A stretch of 64,000 nt of DNA, from contig CM097886.1 of the NCBI GenBank assembly GCA_044892525.1, positions 104,904,001-104,968,000 on the forward strand, in the 5' to 3' direction. Origin of the DNA: Schmidtea polychroa (lineage: Eukaryota). Positions 7,608 to 41,077 of this stretch are shown in pieces. Below the pieces are notes generated by a model. That model had not been told where the DNA came from and did no database searches. It saw only the letters and a program-made list of their open reading frames with translations. Position 1 is the stretch's first letter, and each line of letters begins with the position of its first letter. A program made the translations under genes and the position numbers.

Positions 7608-7677
7608 CTGTAGAATATTTTTTAAAAGTGGTCATAACGAACCAAAGTTTACCTGTAGAATATTTTTTAAAAGTGGT
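7608..7677. repeat. Two 25-bp direct repeats in the LTR (CTGTAGAATATTTTTTAAAAGTGGT), U3-side enhancer candidate
   Basis: Exact copies at 7608-7632 and 7653-7677, mirrored in the other LTR (+26136). Confidence 0.6.
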
Positions 7678-8456
7678 ACTCTACAGATATTTTCCGTTCC
7701 TTATATATTATTTTTCGTCCAATCAGGACACGACTTGTTTGTATTTTTACTATTTATTATTATTTTTATGTTTTTTATTATAATATATTAGATTTTAATG
7801 ACTTAACTTATTTCTTATTATTATTTTATTTATTTTCTTATTTTTATTATTTTCCTCCTATTTTTCCTGTGGATTTATTGCTACTTTATTGTAATATAAT
7901 TTTTTGTTTTAATTAGACTTAAAGATAGTTTTATTTTTATTTATTTCTTAAATTTCTCGTTTATTTGTTGTCACTTTTTTACTTATTCTATTCTATTTCA
8001 TCTGCTGGGTCCTAAATCGCTTTATTTCTAAATCTTAAGGGGTTTATTGGGTTTTATTTAGTTTGTTTTACTTATTCTTATTCTCTTATTGATATTTTAT
8101 TGTTCCTTTTTGATTTATTAGTGGGAATTTGATGGTACTTTATATTTTTATTTTATTTCGTTTATTTTTCAAGGATTACTTTTCTATTCGCTCCAGTTTT
8201 CGAAACTCCGCGTTTTAGCCCAACAAATCACTCCGGGGCCCGTTAAAATTGCGCCCCGCAATTCACATAATATCATACATTTAAATCATACCTTCTTTCG
8301 GCATAACAACTAATTTCACGGTCAACATTCACACAACCATAAAATTAAAATAACTAAATAATACTTTAATTAAACAGATAAAAGGACAAATATAAGCAAG
8401 CAGTAGCCACTTTAGGTGACCGGATTTATACACACAAAGTTTATGAATGGTCGATG

Positions 8457-9092
8457 TCACATGATCTCAAGGTTCGGAATGTTATTACTGTCTTGGTTGG
8501 TTGAATTCTGGGTCGGATGGCTGGTTGAAGTTGTTATCGTGGGGAGCTGGATTGTAACAGGCATTTGGTCAGGAGATAGATTTTGTTGCATTTGGTCGGG
8601 TGGGTTTGGTTGTTGAAAATGTACTGCTCGTTTATGTTTATTTTTCGGTCGTGGGTTCTTTCTTTCGTGTTTCTCGGATAGTGACTGGTTTCTTCTCCAT
8701 GTTCGATGAATATCATACGCTTTCCAGATGACTAGTGCGCAGATGATAAGGGTTTCACTGATGGTAGCATAGAGTAAGACTTGACTTTCTTTTACTTCCT
8801 TCTTCCCGATGATTTCCTTCAAGGATTGTTGGGTGGTTTGTTCTTGTAAGAGAATTTCGAGCTGTTCGATTTTTTGGGTTTGTAGGTGGAGTTGCATTTG
8901 AAATTTTTTCCAGACGGCTTTGTTCCAGCATTGTTTCGGGATGTTGTTGGAGAGCTTTCTTTCGCTTTTCAGTTTGGTTAACGGGTTTTGCTGTTTCTCG
9001 GGATTCTCCCAGAGTGTTGGGATTGGCTGCCACATGGGTATTCCGTTTATCGCTATCATCATTATTGTCACCAGGGTTGCTCCGAACCACAT
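8457..9092 (-). CDS. Accessory type I membrane protein (signal peptide, coiled ectodomain, TM, tail)
   Basis: MWFGATLVTIMMIAING signal-like N-terminus; hydrophobic VLLYATISETLIICALVIW followed by basic residues. Confidence 0.7.
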   Translation of the reverse strand: MWFGATLVTIMMIAINGIPMWQPIPTLWENPEKQQNPLTKLKSERKLSNNIPKQCWNKAVWKKFQMQLHLQTQKIEQLEILLQEQTTQQSLKEIIGKKEVKESQVLLYATISETLIICALVIWKAYDIHRTWRRNQSLSEKHERKNPRPKNKHKRAVHFQQPNPPDQMQQNLSPDQMPVTIQLPTITTSTSHPTQNSTNQDSNNIPNLEIM

Positions 9093-9147
9093 ACTACTAT
9101 ACGAAAATTTTTATTTACAATTATTTACATTGATCATTCATCTTTAA

Positions 9148-9849
9148 TTATTGCCGGGTTTTCTTTTTACGGGTTTTCTTGGATGTTCTCATCACTCTCG
9201 TTTCTGCTTTTATTACTCGTTTTCTTAATTCGGGTAGTACTTTTAATTGTTTGTCTCTTTCGTCTAACTGTTGCTTTAGGGTTATTATTTTTTCTTTTAG
9301 TGCTTTTATTTCTTGTGTTGCTCTTTCGAGGTTTTTATGGTTCATTATCTGTAGAAAATCATTTTCCCTTTCCCCGTCTTCTTCGTTGTCTATTTCCTGG
9401 TATTTGTTGTTCATTCGTCTCATTATCTCACATTCTTTCTGTTTTTGGTGTAGTTGGAGTTGTAACTCTTTCAGGCTTTCTTGGTGTTTCCGTGCCTCGG
9501 TTTTCCAATAGTCACTAATCACTTCGTCGGCCTTTCGACTGGCCCTCTCCTGCCATAATTCTTCCGCGATCTTTTCCCAATTTCTCCCTCGCTTTCTTTG
9601 CTCGTGAAGCCATTCGTTTTCTTCCTCTACTTCTTTCTTTACTTCTTCTAACAAGATATATTCTCTTTTCAATACTTTAATCATTTTTCGATTATCTCTC
9701 CACCTTTCTACTAATCTTTCGTTTTCCTGTCTCTCTTCTTGTAATTCTTCCTTGATAGTTTTCTTCCTCTCCACTTCATCAACTTCAATTTCTCCCTCTT
9801 CTAACTCGATTATAGATGTTATGATGGGTTGTCCGTTTTCAGTGTTCAT
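9148..9849 (-). CDS. Accessory coiled-coil protein, 233 aa
   Basis: E/K/R/Q-rich heptad pattern and a basic C-terminus. Same strand as the polyprotein. Confidence 0.7.
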   Translation of the reverse strand: MNTENGQPIITSIIELEEGEIEVDEVERKKTIKEELQEERQENERLVERWRDNRKMIKVLKREYILLEEVKKEVEEENEWLHEQRKRGRNWEKIAEELWQERASRKADEVISDYWKTEARKHQESLKELQLQLHQKQKECEIMRRMNNKYQEIDNEEDGERENDFLQIMNHKNLERATQEIKALKEKIITLKQQLDERDKQLKVLPELRKRVIKAETRVMRTSKKTRKKKTRQ

Positions 9850-10023
9850 TTTCTATAATATATACATAATTAATAATTGCGCTACAGTGCGTCTTATACT
9901 TATACATTTATATGTTATTTTATAATCAGGGTTACAGTCCCTTTCATACTTTTACTGTACCATTAATTTTTTTGGTTGGGATACAGGTCCCGATTTTTAT
10001 ATTTTTTATCTTTCCTTTTATCT

Positions 10024-11061
10024 TTATACAAAGGTCTCTTCCTTGCCTACATATCCTTCATCGCTTTCTACTGACATTTGTAATTGGAGTGCGATGGGAT
10101 CAAATGGGATGTAGTACCGGGGAATCTGCGCTCTAAGTTCTTGGACTTCGTCTCTTAGCGCTCTTGACACATTGAGTTCCTCGTCCAATAGGTAGGTTAA
10201 ATACCTAGTTTCGTCATCCCGTACTTCTATCTGTTTTTCTAATTCTTCCGCCTTTTCGCCGTTCTCCCATTTCTTGATCTCCTTTTCGAGGTTCTTGATA
10301 TTTTCATCATACATCTTCCTCTCGTTTTCTAATTTCTTATTCTTACCGGCTAGCACTATATTCCTTTGTTCTAGTGCCCCTTTGTAGCCGTTATTGTCTC
10401 TTTCGAGGTCTGTCACCTTATTTACGAGTTCGACGATTCTACCTGACTGTTGCAGGATCATCTCTTCCATGGCGGTATTCTCTTGTTCCTTTATAGACAA
10501 TTTCATGGCTAGATGCCTTTCAAATTCCATGGCCTTGGTCTGCCAGGTTTGACTTCGTGCCGCTATTTTCCTGAGCCTTCTTAGCTCTTCTCTCTGATCA
10601 AGGTTTTCCTCCCATTTCCCTTGTTCACTTTCGTATTCCAATTTCTGAGGTAATTCTCTCATCTCTGTTTTGATTTCCCGATGTTGTCTTTTCCACTTTC
10701 TGGCTTCTGCCAAGAGTTGACGAGATTTCCTTTCCTCTTTTTGTTTTTCCATCTCTCGTTTTTTATTCTCGTCCGTCAGTCTTTTTCTCGATTCCTGTAC
10801 CAATTGTTTTAAGTAGTGACCGTGAGCTTCCTGTCGCGTATTTTCTAATGCTGCCCACTTGGCGGCTCTCTTACAGGCCTCTGCCTCTGCTCGTAAATTT
10901 TGCACCAACCACTGAAATTGGTGGTTTTCCCATTCCCTTGCTTCTTCAAGGTAGTTTCGTGTCTTATTTGCTAATTGCGCCATCACTTTGGCCCATCTTT
11001 CTCGGTGTACTCCATTGATTTTTATTTCATGGTTTGGGGCTTCCGTTCGTTCTTGTGTCAT
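10024..11061 (-). CDS. Accessory coiled-coil protein, 345 aa
   Basis: Long helical E/K/R-rich ORF on the same strand. Confidence 0.75.
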   Translation of the reverse strand: MTQERTEAPNHEIKINGVHRERWAKVMAQLANKTRNYLEEAREWENHQFQWLVQNLRAEAEACKRAAKWAALENTRQEAHGHYLKQLVQESRKRLTDENKKREMEKQKEERKSRQLLAEARKWKRQHREIKTEMRELPQKLEYESEQGKWEENLDQREELRRLRKIAARSQTWQTKAMEFERHLAMKLSIKEQENTAMEEMILQQSGRIVELVNKVTDLERDNNGYKGALEQRNIVLAGKNKKLENERKMYDENIKNLEKEIKKWENGEKAEELEKQIEVRDDETRYLTYLLDEELNVSRALRDEVQELRAQIPRYYIPFDPIALQLQMSVESDEGYVGKEETFV

Positions 11062-11279
11062 CTTATCTGAATAACGAGATTATCAACTCAACGTCTCACA
11101 TTTATATTTGTTCTATTATTTATTTATTGTTACGAATATAGGTGGGTTGGGATTTTTCGAGGTTTTCCGCTTAAATTTACCTTTAGTAGATTTGGGGTTT
11201 TTCTACACTAGTATATAATATTTTACTGGATATATACGCCGATATTTACAATTTATTATATACAAAATTATTCGTCTCC

Positions 11280-12668
11280 CTACTCAGTCCTACTCTTCCC
11301 ATCTCGCCTCACCGCTATTTTTATATATATAGTGTCGTTTCTCGTCATATCCTCTACTTTCCGCTGTAGGATGAAATTCGGTGCTCCGGTTGCTGGTCCT
11401 TCTTCTTCCAATGGCCTTTGATAACATACAAGGTTTCCTGCTGTATGGAAACTCTGTTCATGTATACTTTGATAGTTCATCATTGCGAGATCTATTTTTG
11501 CTTTGAACGGCCATTCTATTAACTCGTCGTATAGCCCTTTGCATATCAAGAAGAATATTGAGAAATGTGTTCCGTGCGCACTCCCGTCCCCATTGGGATA
11601 TGCTTTCATTTTCATCTTATATCCGTTTTTCCATGAGTAGAATGCTGGACTTAATAATGTCGTATCCTTTCCATTTCTCGCTCTCTGCATTTTCTCCTTT
11701 ACTTCCGTTATTTTCCATATGTATGGAGCCGTTGGTATCAATTCATTGAGGTTCATTTCACTTACCTTTTGGTGTAGTTCCTTCACCATTTTGTTGCTAG
11801 TTTCTACTAGATCTTTCTGTATCTTTGTACTTAGTCTTGCCTCTTCGAATGCTTCTTTCTCTTGCAATAATTCTTTTACCAACGTTTTTAGCGAAATTAT
11901 TTCCTTTTCCAAATTTTCGGTTTTCCTTTCATTTTCTTGTAATACCGTTGACCACATTTCTGCGTGTGTTGATACGTTCTCTGCTAGATGTTGGGGTAGT
12001 TCTCCTCGGTGTAGTTGTTTCTGACATCCCCATTTTCCTAACACACACATTATCTTTTTCCTTTCACATTCTTTCAGATGTTGAGCGAGTTTTATTACTC
12101 CGGTTTTATCGCATTTGTTGGGACATTCTCCTCTGAATTCTGCGCACACTTTTTCCTCTTGTACGTTATGATGTTGACTCATTAGTTGCCTCCAGGTGTC
12201 GGTTTCTCCGCAATATTCACATTTTTCTAGCCTTTCTTTGCATCGACTTTGATGTTCTGCTTCTTCACTGGCTTTAATCTCTTCTTGGCAACGTTCGCAG
12301 TGACTGACTTTATACTCACACTTCTCCATATGTTGCCTCACTTCCCATATCACTCCTCGCCAATTACATGGGGTGTTTTTACATCCTAGGTTTGCATTCA
12401 ACATATCTTTTACAGCTGCTTTATCTTCGTTTGTATCTCCCAAACTTGTTATCATTGTTTCTTTGCATACTGGGCACCATTGTGGTCCCTTCTTTATTAT
12501 TTCTTCCACACATCCTTTACACATTCTACATCCGCATCTGGTTTGGTGAGGTTCTTTTAATAATCCTTTGCATATTCCACACTTCACATGGTCATGTATT
12601 CGAATTGTGGTGGATTTTCTGACTTGTTCGACAATTTCTTTGAATTCCTCTCGTTGTCGCTTATCCAT
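11280..12668 (-). CDS. traf-like: Full-length intronless TRAF-family protein (RING - TRAF Zn fingers - coiled coil - MATH/TRAF-C)
   Basis: RING CGICKGLLKEPHQTRCGCRMCKGC...CPVC; Zn fingers C.N..C.W.G...H...C.Y; TRAF-C motifs YIWKI, SPAFYS..GYKM..KAYPNGDG..GTHFSIFF, WPF, FI. Confidence 0.95.
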   Translation of the reverse strand: MDKRQREEFKEIVEQVRKSTTIRIHDHVKCGICKGLLKEPHQTRCGCRMCKGCVEEIIKKGPQWCPVCKETMITSLGDTNEDKAAVKDMLNANLGCKNTPCNWRGVIWEVRQHMEKCEYKVSHCERCQEEIKASEEAEHQSRCKERLEKCEYCGETDTWRQLMSQHHNVQEEKVCAEFRGECPNKCDKTGVIKLAQHLKECERKKIMCVLGKWGCQKQLHRGELPQHLAENVSTHAEMWSTVLQENERKTENLEKEIISLKTLVKELLQEKEAFEEARLSTKIQKDLVETSNKMVKELHQKVSEMNLNELIPTAPYIWKITEVKEKMQRARNGKDTTLLSPAFYSWKNGYKMKMKAYPNGDGSAHGTHFSIFFLICKGLYDELIEWPFKAKIDLAMMNYQSIHEQSFHTAGNLVCYQRPLEEEGPATGAPNFILQRKVEDMTRNDTIYIKIAVRRDGKSRTE

Positions 12669-12756
12669 TTCTATAATTATATATATACATATATTCGTTA
12701 CTGGTACATTCTCGTATTTTTATTTACAATTATTTACATGTTGTTTTGGGTCATAT

Positions 12757-13140
12757 TTATTGACTGGAAGAGTCGGCCTCTTGTCCGCCCTCTTCCCTAC
12801 TGGTTAACCATTCTGACCAGTCTTCTATCTCTTCTCTTTCCATTTCTTCAGCGATTCTCATTAACTCTTCCTCCTGTCCCTGACTGTACCGCAATATTCG
12901 CTCTATTTCCCGCTGCATTTGTTCTATCTTCATTCGCTGATCTTCGATTATTCTTACATAACTGAAGCCTTTATTTAAACTTTCGACTAAGCTTCTTTGT
13001 GCAGCGAGTCCTTGTTCCTGTAAATTCGAAATCACTTGAGTTAACATTGCACATTGCTGCTTCCACATCTCCTCGGTTGTCGTACTGTGGTTTACTTCAT
13101 CGTTTATTCGCTCCATTCTTAATTTATTTACACTTTTCAA
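12757..13140 (-). CDS. Accessory small coiled-coil/acidic protein (first ATG at 13116)
   Basis: 127-aa ORF directly downstream of the polyprotein stop, with heptad pattern and acidic C-terminus. Confidence 0.55.
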   Translation of the reverse strand: MKSVNKLRMERINDEVNHSTTTEEMWKQQCAMLTQVISNLQEQGLAAQRSLVESLNKGFSYVRIIEDQRMKIEQMQREIERILRYSQGQEEELMRIAEEMEREEIEDWSEWLTSREEGGQEADSSSQ

Positions 13141-13284
13141 CCCTTATCTAATTTTAGTTTTATGTTAATTGTCCCCATCATTATATAATATTGATACCGC
13201 GCTTATATAGAGATATAGAATACTGTTATATAAATACATATAATGTACTTACTTTTTACAATCTATATACAGTCATAATCCTTT

Positions 13285-16200
13285 CTATATTTGTGAGTTT
13301 GGAGGGCGCTGAGCATTCCAGGCCTCCACCCACTGTTCCTGCTTGATATTACTTGGTCTCTTTACCTGATGTTGAAAATTTCTGATTCTGGCCATCTCCA
13401 GTTCTCCGCGATGCCGTCTATCTTTGATTATTTTTATGGTTCCCCCCATTATGATTAAAAATGCCCCTGCTATTATTATACCGCTGATCCACATCATCTG
13501 TTTCATGCTTATGATTTCCGCTTTTTCCTTGTTCGTTATTGTTGGTATTGCCTCTGTGCTTTTTAGATTACCACCTTTGTCATTTCCTTTTATCATTCCT
13601 CGTATTCTTGCTATTTCTTCGTTCATGCCTTCCTTTGCCATTTTTTGTATTTTCTCCATCTCTTCTTCTGACACGTAATTATCTTGATATTTCTCACTAG
13701 TTTTCTTGCGCTTTTCTTCCTCTTCTTTCTCATCGTTGCTTTTTCTTTTCTTCCCTCTTTTCCCAGGGTATCGTCGACATTCTCTCGCTGTATCGTTTCT
13801 CCAGATGCATACTGTGTATTCTTTTGGAGGTTGTTGCTGTGTTACATATTGTAGATAGTCTTCACCCGGTCCTAATCTTGAAATGCAGACTTTGTGTTCT
13901 TTTCTTGGCTGGAGTTGCGTTATCACTACCTCACCTCCTTTTCTCAGGTGTACCTCCTTCCCTTTGACTTTAGTTATTCTCTTCCCGTCTCGATTCCGGT
14001 ATGCTTCTTGTATTCTTACTTCCGTTATCGGTTCTGTATCTTCATTTATTAATACTAGTCTCCGATATGCTCTCGACATACATCTTCCTAGTATGCACCT
14101 TTCTTTTAGATCCCATTCTTCTTTTAAATCCCATTGTTGCTCTCGTACTTGCTTCTTCTTTTCTTGCTTTAGTTCCTTCTCCTTGTTATCTTTGTTTTCC
14201 GTTTCCTTGGCTTCTTTTATCGTTCTCATTCCACCGTGGGCTGTTATCATTTCTACCATTGTTAGTATGAGTATCATTACCATCATATTTGTCTCCATTT
14301 CCTTGTTGGTAAAAAGTAGGCATACCCTCTGTTTCCCATTATTCGTCTTTTCCTCTTCCTTTGTTCGGCTTCCCGGTTTATTTTCCTCCTTTTTTATACC
14401 TGAGTCGTTATTCCCTTGATTATTCTCCTCTGATTTCTCTTTCTCTCCATTCCCGTTTCGACCTTGTTCATTATTATCATCGTCTTTATCGTCTTTATCT
14501 CCCCCGCTGTCGTTTGAAATGTCGTCCTCGACATTTATGTCGTTCAATAATCTGCGATATGCTGTTAACACTCTATTTCTTGCTAATTTCGCTTCGAATT
14601 CGAACTCCCTTCTGCCTGTTGCTGCATGTCTCTTTCTATTCCATTCTTTTACTAATTCTCTTAATTGTATTCGACGATGTTTTCCGATTCGCTTTTGTTC
14701 GTTTTGATTTTGCGTAAATTTGAGGTCTTCTCTGTTCAATACGATCATTATGATTTTCGGAGTTCCTCCTTTTGTCAGCGTATTTTTAACCATGGCATTT
14801 TCCCCGTTTTCATAGAACTCATTTATGTTTATTGCATATGTATTACTTTGTGGTATTTTCCATGTTAGCAACAACTTCATGGCTTCTAAGTTCTTCCGTA
14901 TCGTGTTCCATTGGAACTGTGACGTGTTTTTACAGATATTTTCTACCTCAGTTCTTGTAGCATTTTTACGAATGAATCTAATCATTTCTAAGTTTGGTTG
15001 TATTGTTGCCCAATCCATGCTAGAATTTCCTTCGTTTGATATTTCGTCAAGTCTCGAACCTGATTGGTGTAGTATGTGTAAAGTTTTCGGGTGTATATTT
15101 GTTATTGCTGCATACATCATTGCTGTTTCTCCTTGTTCGTTTTTTGCATTTGATTCTTCTCCGAAGTCTCTAAGAATTCTTATGATGGTTATTGCTCTGT
15201 TTTCTTTTGCTGCTAAAATGGCTTGTTGTAATGGTGTTCTTGAATCTTTTGTTGGTAAGGTGAATGCTAGTGGTATGAATGTTTTTATTTTACCTATGTC
15301 TAGATTTGTGGTCTGATCTCTTGCGTAGGTGTGTACTGTTTTGGTTATTTTTGCTAGTATCGCTTCATCGGATAGATCTTGCATTTCTTCAAAGAATACT
15401 TCTTTAGCCTTACGTACTACTATCTCTTGGTCGGAGTTTATTGTCTTTGGTTTACTTGTTGTTGCTATATCGGTTATTGTTTGATCGACTTGTTCCTCAG
15501 ACTCTCTTGCTTTTACTTTCTTCATTTTTATCTTTTTCTTGTTCGAACTGTTAATGCGTTCCTCTGCCGTTAGAACTTGGATAATACTTAGGTAGTTTTC
15601 TCGAATGTTGTTCATAGTTTCCATCATCTGTAAAACACTCACGGTTTCCCAAAACTTTACTTGTACTTTATCGGTAAATTGAGATATGGCTTTTTCGAAG
15701 TTGGTAATTCGTTTTCTGATTAGTTGTTCGTCTTTGTGATTTGAAAACTTTATGCCACGTTGTAGTAGTTGATTTGGGATCTCGAATAGGTGATGTCCCC
15801 TCATCGCTTCTCTCATCAAGGTGTTTTCTCCTTTGGTAAATGTTTCGTTTATATCTACCATGTAATCGTTTTTGATCGGGTTTCTCCACGAAATTAGTAT
15901 TCCAGTAATTGTTATTAATTTCTCTTTGATTGCAGTTAATAACCCGTCATACATGTTTCCTATCTCCCTATTATCCTCGTATGATAATAGATCTACTAAG
16001 ATTATGAAGGCTTCCGTACTTTTCCCTTCGATTGCCTGGTGTAGTGCGTTTTTCTGGTTGTGATCTTGTGTGGTTATCTTTGACCCAGTTTCGAGTAATG
16101 CGATGATAATATCTTTAGCTTTATCCCGATTGGCTGCTATCATTAGTGGGGTGTAACCTTGGTTATTTTCTTGATCCGTCGAAATGTTACAGTCGCGGAA

Positions 16201-19200
16201 TGCTTCAATTGTCTCTAGTATTTGTTCATTATAACCAACCTTTAAAAGTTTGTGTAGTGGTGTATCTCCGTAGTGATCTGTGATTGTGAATAATATGGGC
16301 CATTGACTTTTAACTACCCTGAGCAATGGGTGTGTTCTTTCTCGGTTTGCATAGTTTTCTATCATTGTTAGCAGACCTCCCAATATTTCAAAATCTAATC
16401 TGTCTTTTGCCCATCCGGGCATTTTAGCTTTTACTTCCTTTATGATTTTGTCGGCTTCTGATGGTTGTAACCCCAATCGATTACCTGTTGGTTCGTTTAC
16501 TTGCTGTAACATATTTATTCTGTACGTTTGTGATCTTGTCGTTAATGTACGTCCTTCTGGCTGACTGGTGGCGGTTTTCGGAATTGGCTTACATCGTGCA
16601 ACATTTACGTATATTGGCCTTGTGAAGGGATTGTTCACCAATCGTACTCTTACGTTAGTTTCTCCGACGAATAAAATCTCATACGGACCTTTACCGTTTC
16701 GTTGTAATTTTTTAGTGGTTCCTGGAATTAATTCTGGGGTTTCGATCATCACCCAATCACCTGTTTGAAATGTATGTTGTTTGACGTTTTTCTTTCTATC
16801 GTGCAAGTCTTTGTAACTCTCTTGATAAAATTTTATATTCAGTCCTGCAGTTTCCCAGATTTCCTGCATTCTTTCCTTGAACTTTGTTACGTAATCGTCT
16901 ATTTCCATGTATTGTGATATCGGTGGCTGATACTCCAAATCCATTGGCATATTACATTCTCTACCGTACATCAATTTGAATGGACTCATCTTTGTGGACG
17001 CGTGAATCGACATTCTGTAAGCCATTAAACATAATTTTATATACTCGTCCCAGTCTCGTTGATGACGATCGACATAATTTGATAACATTTGAATCAATGT
17101 TCCATTGAATCTTTCTGTCATACCATTAGTTTGTGGATGATACGGTGATGTTCTTAATTTTGCAATCTTGAAGTAATTGGTTACTTCGCTCATTATTTCA
17201 CTCATGAAATTTGTCCCTTGATCAGTCAGTATCTGTTTCGGCGTTCCATACCGGCAACATATTTCCTCGACTAATATTTTCGCGATTGTTTTTGCTTTCT
17301 GGTCTGCCATAGCGAATGCTTCGGGAAATTTAGTCAGATAGTCCGTGATCACCAATATGTAAATATTCCCTCTATCTGATTCCGGAAGTGGACCGACTAC
17401 GTCCATTGATATCATTGTCATTGGTTCTGCCGGTACTGGCATTGGCTTTAACGGTGCTTTCCATTTCGTTCCCGTGTTTTTTCTGGTCGCGCAAGTTATA
17501 CAGTTCTTTACCCATTCCGTTACGTCTTCGGATAGCGTAGGCCAGAAGTATTTTTGTTTCATCCGTGCCAACGTCTTTTTTGATGACATATGTCCTCCGA
17601 GTCTTCCGTCATGATATTGCGTTAGCAAATCTTTACGTCTATTCTCGGGAATGCACATCAGCCTTTTTTCGCCATCCATTATCAACAACCAATCTTTTTC
17701 TATTATATATCGATGTCGATGTTTATCCATATGCTCTTTCAATTTTTGATCTTTCTCATATACCTCTGCTTTCCCTGTTTTTACATATTCGATTATTTGT
17801 TTCAACTCTACATCCTCTTGTTGGTCTTTCCGTAATTGACAAAAATCTAAATCTTCCGCTATCATCAGACATATTCGTTGCGTTTCGTGATCTACTAGGT
17901 CTGGAAAAATAAATCTGGACATACAATCTGCATTGGCATTTGCTCTTCCCGCTTTGAATTTTATGAACGGTGAATATTCTTGTAACTGCATTGCCCATCG
18001 CATCAACCTACTTGAAGCTTCCTTGTGCTGTCCGAGCCATACTAATGGTTGATGATCCGTTGTGATACATATTTCGTGTCCCCATAACAAATATCGAAAA
18101 TGTTTAATCGCTTGTATAATTGCTAACGCTTCTCTCTCGGTTACGGAATAGTTTTTCTCATGCTTTTTAAACGTTCTACTGTAGTATCCGATCACTCTTT
18201 CTTTTCCTTCCTCGTCGAGTTGTCCCAATATTGCTCCGGCTGCATATCCACTTGCATCTGTCGCTAACAAGAACGGTTTCTTGAAATCAGGATGTACTAG
18301 TATTGGAGCTTCAATTAATTTATCTCGTAGTGTTTCGAATGCTTTTTGCTGTTCTGCACCCCAAATAAATGAGATATCTTTTTTCACCAATTCTTGGATT
18401 GGTTTCGCAATACCTGCATAGTTTTTGATGAATTTACGATAATATCCGCATAATCCGAGAAATTCTTGAACTTGGGTGACAGTTTTTGGTGCTGGACATG
18501 TTTTTATTTTTTCTATGTTTCTGGGATCTGGTTCTTTGCCTTTTGCTGACACTATGTGTCCTAAGAACGTAACTTTTTCTTTTGCCCAATCACATTTGGA
18601 TGGTTTAAGCTTCAATTTCCATTGTCGTAATCGGATGAACACGTTTCTAATGTCTTCCAAATGTTGTTCGAAAGTTGCTGAATATATTAATAAATCATCA
18701 ATATATACCATACATTGCTTGATCCCGTGTGTGACAAAATTCATACATCTCTGAAATGATGCTGGGGCATTGGTCAGTCCAAACGGCATTTTCCTGAATT
18801 GGTATAGATCTCGGCCCAATGTGAATGCTGTTTTCTCTTTGTCTTCCTCCTTGACTTTGATCTGCCAATATCCACTTTTCAGATCTAAAGATGTAAAATA
18901 TGCGGCCCCCTGTAACATAAGTAACATCTCATTGATATCTGGTAACGGGTATGTGTCTCTTTTTGTTACTGCATTTAGTTTCCGATAATCGATACAGAAT
19001 CTCTGAGTACCGTCTTTTTTCTTCACCATGACTACTGGAAATTGCCATGGCGAACAACTTGGTTCGATCACTTGTGCATCTAGCATTTTTTGTACCTCTG
19101 CTTCGGCTATCTCTTTTTGCTTTTCTGCTAGTTTGTATGGTCGTAACGCAATTGGGGTTTCGTCTATTAATGGTATTGCGTGTAATGTAACATCGCATGC

Positions 19201-22200: not shown

Positions 22201-25200
22201 TACTATATCTAGTTTATTCGGAGATGCTTGTCTGCATTCCTCTATATCTCTCAGGGAGTATTTTTCTCTTAATACCGAATTGTCACAGTCGTAGATTGTA
22301 AATCCAGCTGCTCCGCTGGTACAGAGCATCCATATCATCATGGTCATCATTAGTGAATTAATCGACGCTTTTCTGCTGGCTGGGTCCTTTAATGGCAATT
22401 CCCATTCTAGCTCGTTTAATAATTTTTTCAACCTGATTTGCATTGATCTCTCTTGCTCGTTTTTTCGTGGTGCTTGTATGAGTCTTTTCCACCCTCCGGC
22501 ATGGATAATATGTGGTTCGATTGTACTTTCAATGATTGTAACTGTCATTTCTACATGATTTGCGAATTGTTTGTTAGGTATTTTTCTCGCTGCTAATCCC
22601 ATCAAATTGTACATTAGATACGTTAACACTACTAAATGATGTTCGTCGTCGTTTGCGTTTAGAGTTAATTGTTCGATTACTCTTCTTGTCTCTTCCCAAT
22701 CGGTTTTAGTGGTTTTTGTCTTTTCTTTGATTAATTTTGGAATTATTCCGGATATTGTATTCCATAGCTGTCTGGCATGCACGCTTGCTACTTTTCGTTG
22801 CCATAACCGTCTCAATTGCGGGTTTGTTATTATTAACATATCTTTTACCAGCTCCCGTATCCATTTTTCACCTCTCTCGATTGTTGGTTGAGCCTCTTTT
22901 AGATCCCACACTATTTTATCCAATTTCTCTAATCTGACTTGTCCTTGTTCTTGTTTCAACTGTTCTCTGGTTTTGAATTCTGGTTTTTCTCCTTGCTTCT
23001 TGGGCCTCCCTTTTGCCCGTTTTTCCATCATTGTTCCAGCTTCTCTTGTCTTTTCGTAATTCGGGTTTCTCTCGTTATCTGTTCTTGGCAATGAGCTATC
23101 GTTGTTTCTCAGCCACTCATTCCATTCGTCTATTATTTTGTCTGTTTGACCTTCCGGTGTTACTCTTGTTGGTCCGTTTTGTTTTTGGAATTGTTCGTCG
23201 GTTTCGGTTTCTGTCGTATTATCGATAATTTCCTCAATACTCAACTTACCCGGTTGTTGATAACTAGTTGACGGCTGGCTTGTTGTCCAAATCTCTGCCC
23301 CTGTCGGCCATCTCACTAGTATTGGCGATCTTTCTCCCGCTCCTTCATCGCTGTCTTCCAATATGATCTCTTCGATTTCTTCAGTTTCGTTCGATTTACT
23401 CGCCGCTTTGTCAGGGCTTGGTGTACTCAAGCTACCTTTCGTAGGTTTATCGGATTTACTTTTCTTTTTGATTGGTTTTCCCAATGTTTCTGCCATTGTC
23501 AATACATTGATCTCCCCTAATCTCATGGGTGTTATTCCGACGTCTGCATTATCATCTAATGATTTTCCGAATAGTTGTAGGTGAAATGGAGTTTCGTAGG
23601 CCAATTTCTTTTTTAACTCTCTGATCTTTGTTGTTGGATGCACATCTATATCCTCGATGCTCTTGTCGGGATATTTGACTCGGATACGATATCTTTCTTG
23701 GGTATCTTGTGCCCATTCTTGATTTCTCCATTTTCTAATAATTTGTTCTAGCTGTTCTGGATACCATTCGTTATACTGTCGGTATTCTTCTATCGCCTTC
23801 GCCATCTCTCTTAGATTGTGGATATTTTCTGATGTCTTTAGTATGATGGTAGCTAATGCTACTACTTGTCGCTTTTGATTTTTTGCTCCCATTGCTAAGA
23901 TATCACCTAATTGTTTGTATCTTTCCTTCTCTTCTCGTTCTCTCGCTTCTTTTGCCTCTTCACCGTCTATGTCGGCGTATTCGCGTTCCTTCTTTCTCAT
24001 CGCATGAATATGCCTGATTTCGGTTTCACTTTCTGACGTAACATCCGTTTCGCTTGCGTTGTCCGATATCGATTCCATTTCGTCCTCTTCGTATTTTGGA
24101 GGTTCATCTTCCTCTTCTGCTGATTCACTTCCTATCTCGCCAATGTCTGTTTCTACGAAAATCCCTTTCCTGATTTCCCATTCTTTGTTTTCCGCATTCC
24201 ACATCCTTTCCCATGGAGTTCGTCTGCAAGATCTGGTACTCAGTTTCTTTATTTTTCCTTGAAGCTCTTTTTCCTTTAGCCATTGTTGATGAATTTCAAT
24301 TATCTCCACTGATTTTTGGTATAGCGTTTTCATCCTGTCTCTTATCTCTTTCTGGTATGTTACATCTCTTGTTCGAAATTCGTCCATGGGCAATATTCTA
24401 ATGATTTGATGATTATCCCACATTCCCATTTCACTTAACGAGGTATCGTCTTCAGCCCGTAGTATTATTTTATCGTACATCATGACTACGTCATCTATCA
24501 TACCATCGCTGCTCTCGCTTCGAACTTTTTCCGTTATTTCTTGGTTTATCTTTGATACTAAATCGTCCACCGTATTCTGGTTGCTCATTTTTATTCGTCG
24601 TTTCTCCTCGTTTGGTAACCATATGGTTATTTCCAATTTCTGCGGTTGCGTTTCTTTTAATCTTCCGTATTTGTGGATCAAATTTATGGTTCTCCAATCA
24701 CTCATTCGGAGTAATTCTGTATCTCGCAGTCGGCTCATTAGTTCATGCATGTCGGGAGTTCGTCTTGTTATGAGCAAATCCCAGTTATCTTCAACTTGTT
24801 CTTGGATTTGTTTGATTAATTTATCTAGATTTCGTCTTAGAGTGCATTGTTTTAGTTGCTCCAACTTCAGCTTGATATTAAAGTCATACTCGGCCTTGGC
24901 GTCTTTAGCCCATTCGTGAATATTTGCTGGTTGCTTCTCTTTATGCAACTTCAATATTTGAGTTTCTCCTGGCCAGATCAATGCATCTATTAGGTGCATG
25001 TCTGGTTTGATCTGTTCTCCTTGATATTGATACAGGTATTCTTTCTTTCTCGAGCTGCCCAAATGTTCTCTTATCCAATCGAAAAGCTCGTCTGTAACTG
25101 CATTTTTTATCCATATTCTCTCGAGTCCTTTACTCGTTCCGATTTTTATTACATAGCGTGTTGTCTCTGCTTGTTTCATTTTTTCCATGTACTTCTTTAT

Positions 25201-27159
25201 TATCCTCTTTTCCTCGTTTGGTATTAGATCTTTTTCGTTTCTTTCTAGTTTCATTATCTTTTGTATGAAGCGTCTGTATGGTATAATGTCAATGAAATCC
25301 TGGTTTCTTACTACCACTGGAAGTATTTCTTTTACTTGTTTTATCGCTTCTTCTCTTTCTTTTCTCAATTTCATCTCGATATTCTCATCTTCACTTTCGC
25401 TTGTCACATCGCTTTCACTCTCATCTTCATCTGCTCCGATCTTTTCTCTTAGTTGGTCGATGTTTTCATTTAACTGTAACATTTCTCCACCAAGGCTACT
25501 CACATAATCCTCATCGTCATCTGTTGACAACACCTTCTTTGTTGTCCTCATCATATTAATTCGCAAATTTCTCATTCTTGGTACTTTCCTTAGCTTTTTG
25601 TTCTCGAATATCGTTAGCTCCTCTGAGTCTAATTCTTGTATCATATCATGATTTAGATGATTAATCTGTTTTTCCTTTTTGTTATTTTCTGCTTCTGCTT
25701 CTGGTTTTGATTTCTCATTTTCCCTTTCGATTTTATCTTTTATCTTTTTCCAGAATATTTTCTGAATTCTCTGATTTCCTTTTAGCGGTGTTGTTGGAGT
25801 TTCTTGGTTAGCTGTTGTAATCGTTTCTTTCGGTTTCTCTGGTTCGCTCACAGGTACAACTCTTGGATTTTTACCGTAATTGTAACAATATTGCTCTTTT
25901 ATCTCTTTTACCATTCTCATCATATTTATTCGTAATGGTTGTTCTTGTCGCTGCTGAATTCGTTCTCTTTTTATTCTCTCTTCTTCAGCTTGTAGTCTCT
26001 GCCATTCTTGTGCATGTTGTTGCACTTCATAATTGTTAAGATTCTCGGTACTCCTCATCATGCGTATGTTCTGGGTTTGTTGTGGTACTTGTTCTTGTCT
26101 CGGTCTCATCATTTGTTGCATCATCTGCTTCATTTGTGAAATTTCTTGCATCACATTCATTTGCTTTCCCTCACTGGGGTTACTTTGTCGTTGCGGATTT
26201 GGTGCATAATTATTATTTCGTTGTGGTGGTCGTTGTTGTTGGCCCCTTTCGCGACAGTCTCTTGAGATGTGACCTGGTTGACCACAGTTAAAACATCCTC
26301 TCAATTGACATATATTTTCCGTGTGTCCTCGTCGTCCACACCTATTGCAATTGGCGTTTCTATAACAGTCTCTATCCCAATGCCCTGGTTTACCGCATGT
26401 TCGGCATTGTTTGTTATCGTTCGTATTTCGTCGATTATTAAAGTTGTTCCCATTGTTCGAGTTGTTGCGTTCACTGTTATTTCCATTTGATCGTCCTTGT
26501 GGTGGTTTGAAAATTTGATGCGCACCGGGTATAAACTGATTCATTTTTGGTTCATGATTGTTGTTCTCTCCATTTTCAGTTTTTACCGTTGCTGTTGCGA
26601 TTCTTCCCTCCTCTTGCATGACATTCATTTGTGCCGGGAGGTGAAGTTCGCATCTCGTGGCCCAATCTATGGCCTCCTCTAGTGTTTTACACATTTGACA
26701 TCCCACCGAGGCTCTTACCTCCTCTCGGCGTAGTCCTTCTATGAAATAACCAATTAAATTTTCCTCCGGCAAGTTTCCGTTCATGGCCTTCTTTGCCAAT
26801 CTTCGCAATTCGCTTGCGTATAACGTTATTGATTCATTTGCTCTTTGTTTTCTACTCGCTAATTCTCCTAGGGCTTGATTTATTGGTTTGCTGGCTCCGA
26901 AAGTTTTTCTCAAAAATGTTTTGATGTTTTCCCAATTGTCCAGCTTCGTATTTCTTTCTTTAGCTTCTAAGTACACTTCTAATGCGCTATCGCATAAAAA
27001 CAACGGCATCCGTTTACTAATTGCTTCGGACGTCCATCCACACACATCGATATAGACTTCAAAATTGGTTATGAACGTTGCCAACTTGTTCGCATTCCCG
27101 TTGAATGGCTCGCCTCTAAATTTTTCTTTATACTCGTCGGTTTTTACCCCATTCGTCAT
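13285..27159 (-). CDS. 4,624-aa Gag-Ubl-Bcl2-Env-PR-RT-RH-IN-ankyrin-membrane polyprotein
   Basis: One uninterrupted ORF with all catalytic motifs intact: DTG, YIDD, RNase H DAS...E...D, and integrase HHCC and D,D35E. Confidence 0.97.
   Translation of the reverse strand: [4624 protein letters not shown]
13430..14290 (-). other. C-terminal membrane module: second signal-like segment, FN3-like ectodomain, TM anchor
   Basis: [34 protein letters not shown] resembles FN3 strand F; [19 protein letters not shown] followed by KIIKDRR. Confidence 0.55.
14960..16290 (-). other. Two clusters of ankyrin repeats
   Basis: [18 protein letters not shown]...[40 protein letters not shown]. Confidence 0.85.
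16600..17700 (-). other. int: Integrase (HHCC, DDE core, GPY/F)
   Basis: H....GGH...C..[37 protein letters not shown]. Confidence 0.96.
17915..18290 (-). other. RNase H domain
   Basis: [33 protein letters not shown] and NANADCMSR. Confidence 0.95.
18400..19170 (-). other. rt: Reverse transcriptase domain (Ty3/Gypsy)
   Basis: [51 protein letters not shown] and YIDD (18694-18705). Confidence 0.97.
19640..19975 (-). other. pro: Aspartic protease domain
   Basis: [19 protein letters not shown] (DTG at 19915-19923) and the IIGTD motif. Confidence 0.95.
20460..22355 (-). other. env: Env: internal signal peptide + class III (chuvirus G / herpes gB-like) fusion glycoprotein + TM
   Basis: [23 protein letters not shown]...YSL.DIEEC...C.I.....YYCG; later DC..NKEIL...LA....P......[39 protein letters not shown]. 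This Cys pattern is the one I recall for chuvirus-type glycoproteins. Confidence 0.8.
22474..22870 (-). other. Bcl-2-like domain
   Basis: Helical region ending [14 protein letters not shown], which resembles the BH2 consensus L..WI...GGW. BH1 is degenerate. Confidence 0.6.
23494..25160 (-). other. Three ubiquitin-like (beta-grasp) domains: ~24940-25160, ~24388-24640, ~23494-23695
   Basis: Each ~70-85 aa shows the beta-beta-alpha pattern (I.V.....T..I.V....T...L...I), then an L.Y/F.G..L.D...L motif and a terminal I.L strand. Confidence 0.55.
26255..27159 (-). other. gag: Gag domain: capsid-like region and three CCHC zinc knuckles (26255-26406)
   Basis: [28 protein letters not shown] and [14 protein letters not shown]. 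The upstream region has retrotransposon-gag-like [18 protein letters not shown]. Confidence 0.92.
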
Positions 27160-28376
27160 GATTGGTTCTTGAAACGTTATTATTTCTTTTAAATTTTCCA
27201 GCGATGTAGCTAAACTATGGACGGATAATTCTTCTGTTGACCCGGTTAGATTGTTTGTTATATCGGATAGGCTTTCTCTGCTTCTGGATCGACTGGGCGT
27301 ATGTCCGGCTGTGGGGTTTTCTTGATCGTATATCGGTGTTTTGTGGGGTCTTTTTGCTCCTTGTGATATTCCTCTCTGATGTCTAAATGATCGTCCTCTT
27401 TTGAGTTGGTCTAATTCGTCTCCTGAAAATAATACGTCTCCTGGCTTACTTGAAGATCTAAGGTTGGGTTTATCCGTGTTTCTTTCTTACTCTTTCCTGG
27501 CTTTTCACGTGGATTTTCTACGGTTAGCGTCTGCTGAATTGGTCGAGTTCGGTTCTGATATTGTTTTCCTTTGTGCGGGTTCTGAATTGCTTTTCCTGGG
27601 TTGTTTGTATATTCTCTGGATTCCTTTTGAGCTGGTTCTGAATTGACTTGGTTGGATTGATGTCTACAATGAAAAAATGATATCGTGTTGCATTTGCTTA
27701 CACGAATCAATCATTCCTTTTTACCACATTCAAGCACAGACACCGTTTTTGGGCCTCTGTTATGCTTCTCTTCCTTTCCCCTTACAATTCTTCGTGGAGT
27801 ATAATTACCCATCAACCCATATTTTTCGTCGATTTTAAATTATCTATTTGGGGTAGTAACAATTATCTATATAGTCGCATAAATTATCTATAGTTATCAT
27901 TTATAATATCGATAGGTCGTTGTCAGTTACTGCTTATTACCCCCCATATTTTCCTTAATCCTTTTACGCGGTTCCGCTTATTCAGTTAATCCTTTATCTC
28001 TATTCCCCTTATTTGGTTCTACTCTGTAACCAAAACAAAATTCGTTTAACCGGTTTAAACCAAAAAAATTCTGTAGAACTTTGTCTACCTATCTGGGATC
28101 CCCTTTAATTAATTAATTATTTCCTCTTTGGTTCATCATCTATTCATACTTATTCTTTGTTTCTATTATTCCTAATTCATTTTCCTTTTCCGTTTCTCCT
28201 TCTTCACTAGAAGAATTTTACTATCATCTTTTACGAGCTCGTTTAATCCTTTCTAAATTCAAATTCCATATTTCAAACTCAATTTGCTTCTAGCTAGCTT
28301 TAATATTCTATCTCACTAGTAATTTAAATGTTATCAACTTGTAGCTTAAATGCTATCTCACTATTACTTTAGGCCT

Positions 28377-28592
28377 TTACGACTGGCTGGCACTTTTCAA
28401 CAGCTCAATCTTCATTATCTTGACCGGTTGGACTATTCAACAACTCGATCTTACGACTGGCTGGCACTATTCAACAGCTCAATCTTCTTCTCCTGACCGG
28501 TTGGAGTATTCAACAACTCGATCTTACGACTGGCTGGCACTATTCAACAGCTCAATCTTCTTCTTTTGACCGGTTGGACTATTCAACAACTC
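28377..28592. repeat. 3 x 73-74-bp tandem repeat in the 5' leader, each built from two ~37-bp subunits
   Basis: Units start TTACGACTGGCTGGCAC at 28377, 28451 and 28524. Confidence 0.9.
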
Positions 28593-29190
28593 GGCCTTAA
28601 TATCTCCGACTATGCATGCTTCTACTACTTTCTCCCCTTTTATTCTAACCTACCATTTTCTCAAATTTTACCTTTTACTTTGTCGACCTAATCTTTACCG
28701 CTTTGGAATGTTTCCCCTTTCCCCCCTTGCTCAAAACGCAAAACGATCGCATTGATCCATTTCTACATTGGTATGGTGATCAGCCATACCGCAGAAACTT
28801 TTCAATATTCGCGATGGTACCTCGCCTTACATCCCTTACTCGGGGTGATCGGTTGTCCCTTCCCAAACGGTTCCAATATCGTACCTCCCGAAGGTGGCTC
28901 GGTTTATTCCCCCTTTAACCCTATGATGGGACTAGTTCCACTTTAAATAATCAATTTAAATTTTTAAAATGCCCTTTCTTCATGGTGAAAATTATAACAA
29001 CACAAATCAATTTATAACCTCGTATAATGAAATGAATACACAAAAAGGATTTATTAGTTATTTACTCCACATTACAGATAATATATGCTATCATTATAAA
29101 CATTACCGAATTAAATCAGAACAAAAATATCAAAATGTTTAGTCTAATTGTTAATCATCCAATTTCCTTCACCGAGCAACGATCGCGTGC

Positions 29191-29670
29191 CTAACTGAAA
29201 TAGATTGTGTGCTTCTCTTTTATTACACATGTGCACATAGAACAACGGATTAAATTGGCGGCGCATTCGTCACAATTACTAAGGTGCCCACAAGGTAGAA
29301 TCAGAGTTTTGACAGGTCGCATCTTGCAAATGTTACAAATTCTCAAGGCCGCTGCTTTCTCTACTATTGATGTTCGTATCCGCTGAGACAGAGTTTTGAC
29401 TTGTTCGCGTATCCTCACATATTCGATGTTCAGAGCGGGGTCGTCGAGTCGTTGCTGCATCCATTGGTAATGGGTAGACAAGTCAGTGTTGGTAGTTGTT
29501 GATCCTAATCTGTCGGTTAGAAAGTTTTGTTTGGATATCAGCGGTGCGTTGTGGCGTTGTTGCTCTAAGAGTTCTATTTGTTTCAGTTTCTCTCTTAATA
29601 TCTTTATCGAATCATTTTCTATGTCGATGAATCTGCTTAGCTGTTGTAGATGTTTTCTAGCTTCCGACAT
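29191..29670 (-). CDS. Coiled-coil + C-terminal IAP/Mdm2-type C3HC4 RING protein (putative E3 ligase)
   Basis: CNICKMRPVKTLILPCGHLSNCDECAANLIRCSMCTCVIKEKHTIYFS. The terminal RING plus hydrophobic tail is typical of IAP-like RINGs. No BIR domain. Confidence 0.88.
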   Translation of the reverse strand: MSEARKHLQQLSRFIDIENDSIKILREKLKQIELLEQQRHNAPLISKQNFLTDRLGSTTTNTDLSTHYQWMQQRLDDPALNIEYVRIREQVKTLSQRIRTSIVEKAAALRICNICKMRPVKTLILPCGHLSNCDECAANLIRCSMCTCVIKEKHTIYFS

Positions 29671-30107
29671 ATCTAAATGAAGGTGTTGTTATTATTTTGT
29701 TCCTGCTGGTATTAACAATAATATTATTATGTTTGTATTTAATATTCGTTGACTTTTATGTGTTAGTGTTTTAACTTTTGTATTTTATTCGATCTTTGAA
29801 ATTCCTCTTTCATATTTTTTCGCTTTAATCATTTACTTTCTTTCGTCCCCCCTTTTATTTTAACCAGTTAATATTAACTACAATAACTAATTCCCGTTTT
29901 CTTTTCTCATCATGCCTCATCACATTCATTCCAACTCATTTAGGTTCGTTTCATTCACCACATACTCTATTTCAAACTCAGACAGTTCGTATCATTTCAT
30001 TGCGCTATAATTCGTTTCAGCCCCGATTCCATTCTTATCATAATTAATTAGATTGTTAATCTAACACATCATAACACAAAAATAGACAATCAAACAAATC
30101 ACTGTAA

Positions 30108-30125
30108 ATCCCGGCTGAGCCCCCA
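30108..30125 (-). promoter_or_regulatory. Primer-binding site, tRNA-Pro type (TGGGGGCTCAGCCGGGAT)
   Basis: Matches the classical tRNA-Pro PBS TGGGGGCTCGTCCGGGAT at 16/18 positions. Starts 7 nt after the 5' LTR. Confidence 0.85.
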
Positions 30126-30132
30126 AAAATCA

Positions 30133-33100
30133 TGTTGGCGTATGTGGAGAAGAGAGAAAAATATGCATGCCTTTCCATCACACCTATCAAGCATCATCAC
30201 TCCGTTATACATTTTCTACACATACTCCAGATGATTGATCGCATATTCCCACATATGAGCCCATGGTGATGTTCCATGTTGGTGCTGCTCACACGGGTCG
30301 GAAAAGGTTAGCAGGTGAGCCCCTGCCTTAGGACTACTCCTAACCCTTTCTCGGTTCGGGTCCTACGGTGCCTTAGAAGGTCTTACCCACATACATGCGT
30401 ATCACTCGGTCTGATCCTGGTCCAAAGGAACAACCTTCAACCCTAATTACCTTCATTCCGCAGCATTATCTCATCTACTCTAATTGCACAAACAAATGTA
30501 TGAAAACTTGACAAAACTGAAATCAAACAGAAAATTTTATTGACACTGAAACGATAAAAATATCATTACCACTAACAGATCAACAGCAGTCAAAAATATA
30601 TAACATTAGCAGAATTCACAAGGTAATTTACAACTCGATGAAGAAAAAATCAAGCTCAATTGTACGTCGCGTTAGACAAAGTCATCCCCACCTGCAAGCA
30701 TCTCATCTATGTCGACCGGTAATCGGCTATCTACAATATATTTGATGCCCCCGGCCGGAACAATGCGGAAGACTTCTTTCGAGGGGATTGAATGGGTGGA
30801 CGATATTTCTTGGATTTTTGATTGCGCCGCCGATAAGGACGCCTCGAGTGCTGTCATCGCATCTCGGCGTTTTTGATTCTTCTCGGCTCGAGTTGGCCGT
30901 TTCCGTTTGCGAGGTGGCAGATTATCTCCTACAGCCGTGGTGACACTAGATGCCACGAGAATTGGAGCCAGAATTGGGTCCGAAGGACCGCCTACCTTTG
31001 GCTGATGGCCTGACAACACTGGGGCTGGAATGGGCGGCAGTTGTGAGCCGTGCCCCTGACAGTTCGAGCTGGAAGATGTAGAAGACTGGTGGTGAAGGGG
31101 AAAGACATTCATCCCATCCAGAACGGGAAATTCTCGCACCCGCTTCGCCAGTTCTGCCTCCGTATATACTTTATGGAGGGCTTCTGATTGTGCTTTGATA
31201 GTGAGCCGCTGGCAACGGCTTTCCTCTAGCAGGCTGTCCCTGCAATGCTCCAATCGGAGAATTTTCTTGCGTTCCTCTTTCATTTGTGGCGGGGAGAACC
31301 ACGTTCCTTCATAGAGATCAATTCTCTTTTTGAGAGCCCCGATATATAAGTGAAGTTGGGCGATATCCGCGTTCTTGTCCGCACAAGAAAAACACGGGCG
31401 AAGTTCTTTGGCGTTGTTGTACGATGTAGCCATCTAGAAAATCAATCATTGTTTATGTTTACTCGAAAAACCTCTATCAGTGCGATAAAAATCAAATTTT
31501 GGGGCATGGTTTTGGAGTTTTATCAAACATACCACCCAACAATGACCCACAGACCTCTTCATCCATCTCTATTCGCAGTCATTCAGTTGCAAGCATTCAA
31601 ATCTCTTCACCTGATTCGTGTAAATTAAGAAAAGCAAACGGGGATTTCATGCACAAAATTCTCCCTCTCTAAACCTCGCCCTTTGGATTTGTTTTCGGAT
31701 GGGACAATTCCCAGGTAAAGCTCGTCTTTTACTTTATTCCCTTCAACCTTGTTCCCCTTAGTATATTTTTATTTAAAAATTTGCCGATATCATTATGGCA
31801 ATCCGTCGATGTAGGCGTACCTAAAATTACAGAGAAATAATTCACGGCGACGGAATAGATTATTTATGTTTTTATCTCGTTCAAAATTATGGAATTGATC
31901 ATGTAATCAGTTGAAAATTCAGCTCTAAATCTACATCTAATTAATTCCAATAACGCGTCGAAATCGTCGTCATGGAAAACGTTTACTTGTGATTATGCAT
32001 TATGACTGAATGTGTAGGTGTGTCATTACTCCTGGTGGTATCTGTAACTGTATGTTGGCTATCACCGCGAATGATGGTTTATGCTGTTATGAGAAATTAT
32101 TATATATCGAGTTGTGTAGGGGAAATCCATTCCTTTACTTCATCCTATTATCTCGCTGTTCTAGAAAAGTTCATATTATCATGCCGCTATTACATCACCA
32201 AAAATCGTGGATTTACTTTTACACTGCCCTATGTAGACTTGACTGTGGTGTGCGTGTGTATGTGCATTCTCAAGTCGGAATAATATGGGTTGCGTAATAG
32301 ATTCCTCAAACAAGCAGCCGTAGACGAATCGGAAAGTCAGATTAATCAATCTGAGTAGGCGACAAATTAGTAGATTATTGAGTAAGCTCGATGTTATTAT
32401 CTAATTCTCTTTCACGATATTAATTCAGGCCAATGACTATCAGCTTATCCATTTGACATTTCTCCAGAAAACCGACACGTTATCTCTTTCTCTAGGACAT
32501 TATCCGCTATCTCCTGTCGACTAACTCTACGCTGGCTAATGTAAATCAACTGATTTCGTTATCGTTGGCAACTATTGCCTGCGAGCTCGAAGTGAGGATT
32601 TTGATAATTTCACTGCAAGATGTTTACTTTCCTGTCAGCGAGAGATTTTTTATCACTGGCATCGGCGATTCAAGGACGACAGTTCCATCGTAAGAGTACA
32701 TCGATAATGGATGTAGCCGCTAACGTTTTGACGGCACAAATCAGACAGAGCCTTGCAAATGCAGTACGTTGCAGAAAAATCGTTGGATTTACTCGCAATC
32801 TATGGTCAACACTGTTCTTTCCCAACTACGTCGATCGAAAGGCTGAATATCATGAAAAATTTTCTCCTAGCTATGTGGATTATTATCGAATCAGTATGAA
32901 CGTCAATGCCAATCTCGATCTGAATTATCTGCATTCGAAATTTAAATCATCTCTACAACTATTGGAAATCTCGGTGTGACTAACTGAACCGATGGTACGC
33001 TCTATGGACGATCGCGCTTGATGAAGGAAATTTCACTTCCCAACTGGATTTTCCACCTACTGAGTTTCTTCACCCCTCATGACACACCCAAGAAGGCATT

Positions 33101-38170: not shown

Positions 38171-38187
38171 TATTTTAACATTTTAAA

Positions 38188-40972: not shown

Positions 40973-41077
40973 AGAATGGATGCCTTTGTAAAATTGGAGG
41001 AACTCCACAGAATAATGGTAAAGGATTGTATTTAAAACCTTGGAAGGAACTATGATACCATTTTTGATACCATTAAA

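Follow-up and report, generated by a model that had tools for sequence, protein, structure and literature searches.

A giant Burro-like retrotransposon of Schmidtea polychroa that probably expresses its genes by splicing from a leader in its long terminal repeat

In the adenovirus major late unit and among the subgenomic RNAs of complex retroviruses, a common leader is spliced to alternative acceptors that lie just before start codons. Our analysis of a 64,000 nucleotide stretch of Schmidtea polychroa DNA (GenBank assembly GCA_044892525.1, contig CM097886.1, positions 104,904,001 to 104,968,000; the whole stretch is "the window" below, and all coordinates are positions in it) points to a similar arrangement in a young, Burro-like Ty3/gypsy element with multi-kb long terminal repeats (LTRs), which occupies 30,365 bp (3997–34361) and is read from the minus strand. 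The dugesiid planarian elements Burro and GYPSM1 are like it in being longer than 30 kb, in having a very large polyprotein, an env gene between gag and protease, and ankyrins, and in having TRAF/MATH sequences in the polyprotein or in an accessory open reading frame (ORF), here the ORF 12668–11280 (PMC6431247; this and the other articles given by PMC number are cited for the portions of their text that treat the points in question). The Burro elements rank among the largest retroelements known; they number thousands of copies, and PIWI targets them in planarian cells (PMC6431247, PMC8532177). The window element is unlike them in that its TRAF gene belongs to a five-gene cassette after the polyprotein and in that an ORF lies inside its LTR. 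Splicing-based expression of Burro accessory ORFs was not found in the literature searched; the original Burro genome paper lay outside that scope and could bear on the novelty of what follows.

The element is bounded by two LTRs of 4229 bp each, which differ by 1 mismatch, have TG..CA ends and are flanked by a 4-bp target-site duplication. Its genes are arranged 5' to 3' in the order LTR ORF (31433), RING-finger ORF (29670), polyprotein, and then the cassette ORFs at 13116, 12668 (TRAF), 11061, 9849 and 9092. The features are as follows, with the number of loci at which the AG upstream of the start is kept:

30133–34361, minus strand: 5' LTR, 4229 bp, TG..CA
30672–31433, minus strand: LTR-encoded ORF, 253 amino acids; TAG immediately 5' of the ATG; AG kept at 23/24 loci
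30108–30125, minus strand: candidate primer-binding-site-like stretch, resembling the tRNA-Pro site of Cer1 (PMC10309623)
29191–29670, minus strand: RING-finger ORF, 159 amino acids; TAG 2 nt upstream; kept at 21/21 loci
13285–27159, minus strand: polyprotein from its first Met, 4624 amino acids
12757–13116, minus strand: 119 amino acid ORF; AAG 1 nt upstream; kept at 30/30 loci
11280–12668, minus strand: TRAF-like ORF (RING and MATH), 462 amino acids; TAG 2 nt upstream; kept at 30/30 loci
10024–11061, minus strand: 345 amino acid ORF without Pfam match; YAG 5–6 nt upstream
9148–9849, minus strand: 233 amino acid ORF without Pfam match; TAG 3 nt upstream; kept at 42/42 loci (some copies counted twice)
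8457–9092, minus strand: 211 amino acid ORF with two hydrophobic stretches; TAG 1 and 4 nt upstream; kept at 24/24 loci
3997–8225, minus strand: 3' LTR, carrying a second copy of the LTR ORF (start 5297)

A preliminary description of this DNA had drawn attention to splice-acceptor-like YAGs just upstream of six accessory start codons, and all six quoted contexts are present in the sequence (at 9092, 9849, 11061, 12668, 29670 and 31433/5297). When the ATG-started minus-strand ORFs of at least 100 amino acids in the element are counted (n = 8), a YAG ends 0–5 nt upstream of the ATG at 6/8 sense ORF starts, and at 6/7 accessory starts. The two starts without one are the first Met of the polyprotein (27159) and the 119 amino acid ORF at 13116, which the earlier account had omitted. 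The chance rate of YAG is 0.13–0.18 per position under three null models, and P(6/8) is 1.1e-4 to 6.2e-4; only the YAG null is relied on here, and nulls based on scores or on TNYAG, a pattern chosen after the sites had been seen, give smaller P values. Control starts elsewhere in the window (those of a Polinton-type element and others) have a YAG in only 1/12 cases (Fisher p 0.004).

Host splice models were derived from 59 of the 65 introns inferred in ten dynein genes (six with ambiguous boundaries were dropped). Their acceptors are 30 TAG, 18 CAG, 9 AAG and 2 GAG, which are probably miscalls; the AAG before the ORF at 13116 is thus of a type that the host uses (9 of 59 introns). The lengths of these host introns are bimodal, with 30/59 at 40–58 nt and most others at 0.5–4.5 kb. 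Under the host model the six sites rank 4, 8, 25, 33, 41 and 61 among the 2137 AGs (the top 3%), and they score at the 12th to 76th percentile of host acceptors; at 9092 the upstream AG (9097, rank 25) beats the one quoted previously (9094, rank 138). At position -3 before 11061 the copies exchange C and T, with 19 CAG and 6 TAG among the 25 aligned of 30 loci. ATGs lie 16–40 nt before five of the seven accessory starts, upstream of the AG, so that scanning would be blocked without splicing.

The donor side of such splicing has a strong candidate in the LTR, where the following features lie close together:

33655–33661, minus strand: TATA-like box, seen in the sequence and in copies, with a matching layout in a second family; transcription would start near 33633
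33583–33633, minus strand: predicted leader exon, about 50 nt and ATG-free, ending at the major donor (intron start 33582)
33478–33582, minus strand: 105-nt GT..AAG intron, which the two LTRs of a single other insertion precisely lack

Donor 33582 ranks 2 of 1031 GTs under the host-derived model and lies 79 nt after the TATA box. Its GT is retained in 30/30 loci, but these were picked by a pattern containing that GT; an AATAAA at 33500, inside the 105-nt intron, is also kept in 30/30 loci. A pattern search of the genome for LTRs with a base other than G after the leader gave 3, versus 68 with an intact donor. All three miss exactly 33582–33478, from GT to AAG, and go back to a single event: two are the pair of LTRs of one insertion, and the third is a flank-sharing duplicate. 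Deletions of at least 15 nt in 2.3 kb were found in 0/30 other LTR loci, which puts the chance of this precise loss at about 0.01 or less, and where copies have other large deletions, the joins show microhomology and no GT..AG ends. The loss is most simply explained if an RNA spliced at 33582 was reverse transcribed, and it likely indicates use of that donor, though not its pairing with the accessory acceptors. Two other candidates were rejected: a second donor at 33216 (score -1.2) would end a non-coding exon and has no junction copy, and shortened copies taken as fossils of subgenomic splicing gave 13 breakpoints from 8 loci, with six large deletions, none of them GT..AG.

From these features we infer that the element's genes are probably expressed by cis-splicing of an LTR leader. 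The LTR promoter would produce the short leader exon, and donor 33582 would be joined to the acceptors before the accessory ATGs, so that each gene has a messenger of its own. Splicing to an acceptor some 500 nt before the first Met of the polyprotein would likewise yield the gag-env-pol messenger; lacking the primer-binding site, this RNA would differ from the packaged genomic RNA. The nested mRNAs from a single LTR donor that had been proposed in the preliminary description are thus favoured indirectly by the strength of the donor, the one intron loss and the layout of a second family (below), while the contrast it drew with the polyprotein is probably wrong.

That contrast, that the polyprotein ATG lacks a YAG, is literally true of the first Met but misleading, in that an acceptor lies about 500 nt upstream in both families:

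27160–27664, minus strand: acceptor 27664 and 504 ATG-free nt, with an in-frame extension under coding constraint at 27420–27160

The nearest ATG upstream of the polyprotein Met is at 534 nt, just beyond acceptor 27664 (-504); in the second family these distances are 526 nt and about -499. The frame before the first Met is open for 109 codons in the window element and 103 in the second family. In the last 261 nt before the Met, 21 copies show 15 synonymous and 7 non-synonymous changes (15/22 at third positions) and no indels, and gag in the copies shows 28 and 10; the stretch just 5' of these 261 nt carries frame-shifting indels. The extension of the second-family polyprotein shows 6 synonymous and 2 non-synonymous changes. 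Because its substitutions resemble those of gag and indels are absent, this ATG-less extension of about 100 codons is likely translated, and the polyprotein start as annotated is probably off by about that many codons. Unspliced RNA could hardly be scanned as far as the polyprotein, because 131 ATGs lie between the promoter and its acceptor; the polyprotein thus probably also needs an acceptor and would be no exception to the array. Translation might begin at an ACG (27480), a candidate non-ATG start that is invariant in 22/22 sequences, or an exon with an ATG could be spliced to the weak acceptor 27423, for which no candidate exon was singled out. A 27-nt intron (27449–27423) was discarded as shorter than the host minimum of 40, and an ATG mini-exon (30516–30451) feeding the polyprotein as its donor is kept in just 12/25 loci; donor 30434 is kept in 25/25, yet the phase test is passed equally by dozens of the 317 GTs examined. 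Homolog searches with the polyprotein N-terminus found nothing.

A second giant family, of which four insertions were read in 10-kb pieces, has proteins 27–68% identical to those of the window element, and the DNA similarity of the cassettes amounts to one 26-nt hit. Among the 11 sense ORFs of one copy (at least 95 amino acids), TAG lies 0–3 nt before the ATG at 6, or at 7 counting one second Met (P 3e-3 to 4e-4), and the last ORF has AAG; the starts without YAG include the polyprotein and two LTR frames. In two of its LTR types, whose leaders differ, a TATA box is followed after 78 and 87 nt by a GTAAG donor, so that this layout is common to three LTR types in both families. Two compact env-bearing relatives have CAG 2 and 3 nt before the first ORF after the polyprotein; most of the other ORFs in the pieces read come from other repeats or broken frames and were left uncounted. 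The second family has one internal region common to two LTR types; its polyprotein includes MATH, and its cassette adds a separate TRAF gene together with a second RING gene.

The spacers of the cassette contain a further conserved feature:

9112–13271, minus strand: ten TGTAHATA motifs (at 13271, 13132, 12738, 12728, 12689, 11264, 11250, 9866, 9129 and 9119)

These are all of the sense TGTAHATA motifs of 26 kb, they fall within the five cassette spacers, and the opposite strand has 0; the mean in shuffles is 0.64 and the observed level was reached in 0/2000 of them. The second family has 7, versus 0.69 in shuffles. The first motif begins 13–18 nt past 9/11 internal cassette stops, and at such spacing it occurs at 0/7 other stops of the elements and at 0/21 other genomic 3' ends, mostly of TRAF-like paralogues; where the 3' tail is predicted to be short, the motif is absent. 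TGTAHATA matches the PUF consensus UGUANAUA (PMC5855632) and is likely a PUF-protein site that acts on those messengers whose 3' tails are long; if so, this conserved stop-proximal motif may tie the element to the stem-cell regulator DjPum (PMC5855632). Some 24 nt, including a doubled TGTAAATA motif, are identical between the spacers 12756–12717 and 9147–9108. By analogy with the stop-proximal shield that Rous sarcoma virus is said to have, TGTAHATA might protect or control the long-tailed messengers. A role in poly(A) addition is a rival to this, but AATAAA itself is not enriched.

Contigs of four sequencing runs (three guessed to be RNA and one of unknown type) were compared with 8230–13400, and no joint or loose end lies at the acceptors among those listed; at least 337 further loose ends are outside that list, two of the guessed-RNA runs covered 14/30 and 3/30 bins, and the comparison is evidence neither way. 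The poly(A)-like end seen at 9967 is attributed to internal priming, since it lies on a genomic A-run and similar ends are found inside coding sequence. In one guessed-RNA run, plus-strand contigs (8230–8358) end in an A-run at 8358, from antisense RNA or internal priming.

Several observations weigh against splicing from the LTR leader. The acceptor scores are modest, four of the six sites being only at the 12th to 22nd host percentile, and three AGs that score above these sites precede no ORF; the invariance of the AGs is weak evidence, since the copies are 84–98% alike. Donor 33582 must bridge up to 24 kb to the acceptors, past many competing sites. The fossil junction ends at a weak AAG (rank 106) just 105 nt from the donor, and it is from one insertion only, with 3 nt of microhomology. 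Pattern searches of the genome found no copies joined to an accessory acceptor, although few would be expected because such RNAs would be without the primer site. The second-family donors score just 1.1 and 2.3, one of the leaders contains an ATG, and pattern searches found no intron loss in that family. Finally, the start codon of the polyprotein extension is not pinned to one site (ACG 27480 or a start by way of acceptor 27423).

The best surviving rival, also raised in the preliminary description, is spliced-leader trans-splicing, in which the 3' cassette would be an operon with cleavage and polyadenylation after each ORF and a host spliced leader added at each AG, alone or alongside cis-splicing. 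Trans-splicing does occur in planarians (PMC10899757), flatworm acceptors often serve both cis- and trans-splicing, and the 55–218 nt spacers here agree with the flatworm operon criteria, which call for same-strand genes separated by under 300 nt and an acceptor ahead of every downstream gene (PMC12582326). Several spacers have TGTA and then AATAAA, and in one second-family spacer a long A-run follows the motif. The window element is unlike those operons in that its internal poly(A) signals are not enriched (6 AATAAA in spacers versus 5.3 in shuffles; 7 versus 6.2 in the second family), being present in 4/5 spacers and lost in copies at two, and its spacers are rich in A, unlike host 3' ends, which are rich in T. 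A strong cis donor directly 3' of the promoter would also be unexpected at a trans-spliced 5' end. Furthermore, the flatworm leader ends in AUG (PMC9851317), which would be in frame at only 2/7 accessory starts and out of frame at 27423. We consider such an operon unlikely, and give as little credence to a stricter form of it, in which a UGUA/PUF-type signal would direct cleavage, the spliced leader would cap the downstream genes, and the polyprotein would have a non-AUG start on a separately spliced RNA.

It is more doubtful still that the accessory genes have their own internal promoters, as foamy-virus accessory genes do, with each AG closing a short intron in the 5' untranslated region. 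There are local donors in some spacers (13252, rank 3; 11180, rank 5; 29836; 9949) and a TATA-like box near 13205, but the 55-nt and 88-nt spacers are too small for a promoter, an exon and the 40-nt minimum intron, and the spacer motifs are strictly on the sense strand (10 versus 0). Least probable is that the AGs are a habit of translation context or chance, with the ORFs translated off a single RNA through re-initiation or internal entry; the head-to-tail cassette and a motif at a fixed 13–18 nt behind stops, which could serve re-initiation, agree with this, but upstream ATGs are present in the spacers and it leaves the YAG statistics, the C/T exchange at -3, the second family and the intron loss all unexplained.

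Apart from these questions of expression, a Pfam search gives the order of domains in the polyprotein as gag, CCHC, fusion glycoprotein, protease, reverse transcriptase, RNase H, integrase and ankyrins. The BIR and Bcl-2-like motifs of Burro elements gave no Pfam match at E 0.01 in the window copy (no profile-profile search was made), and there is a weak Bcl-2 match in compact relatives. Searches for tRNA genes and against Rfam gave no match, and a genome search with TRAF gave 92 close matches among 2023 scored candidates. Three 73-nt tandem repeats at 28341–28611, between the RING ORF and the polyprotein, differ in copy number among insertions, and an antisense 119 amino acid ORF without Pfam match lies within the LTR (32620–32979 and 6484–6843). 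Near the 3' end of the 5' LTR is a dense group of signals:

30434–30541, minus strand: AATAAA 30541, the acceptor with the element's top score (30517), and two candidate donors, 30450 and 30434

This acceptor is 24 nt after the AATAAA and 67–83 nt before the two donors, and the region may be both a poly(A) site and an internal exon. Elsewhere in the window, a Polinton/Maverick-type element (35934–51102) is bounded by 251-nt inverted ends and encodes a capsid protein, an integrase, an ATPase and a polymerase B; just upstream of most of its start codons is an A-rich TATAAA(A) or TAAA stretch, not AG. A second polymerase B gene (56214–58955), with an endonuclease VII match, lies between long inverted repeat arrays (51347–52686 and 62252–63340).

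Two further systems resemble the window element in parts of this arrangement. The foamy viruses have their major donor in the LTR, upstream of an AATAAA, and translate pol from its own spliced RNA (PMC3694450), to which the polyprotein messenger proposed here may be likened; in the window LTR the candidates for the R/U5 border are the AATAAAs at 33500 and 30541. Foamy viruses, however, are Retroviridae with an internal promoter for their accessory genes, whereas the window element is Ty3/gypsy and has seven or more acceptors. The foamy-virus gene order (separate gag, pol and env, and a Tas-driven internal promoter) is not found in it, its polyprotein being single with env before protease; its LTR may work like a foamy LTR, but the element is Burro-like and not a foamy virus. 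Cer1 of C. elegans is also Ty3/gypsy, with a tRNA-Pro-type primer site and a spliced CERV messenger whose acceptor lies before the initiator ATG, but its single accessory product is built from five exons and has exons in common with gag (PMC10309623), where the window element has separate single-exon genes. If the splicing proposed here is correct, a single LTR leader would serve eight or more messengers, an arrangement as elaborate as that of a complex retrovirus and one that would have arisen independently on a Ty3/gypsy backbone.

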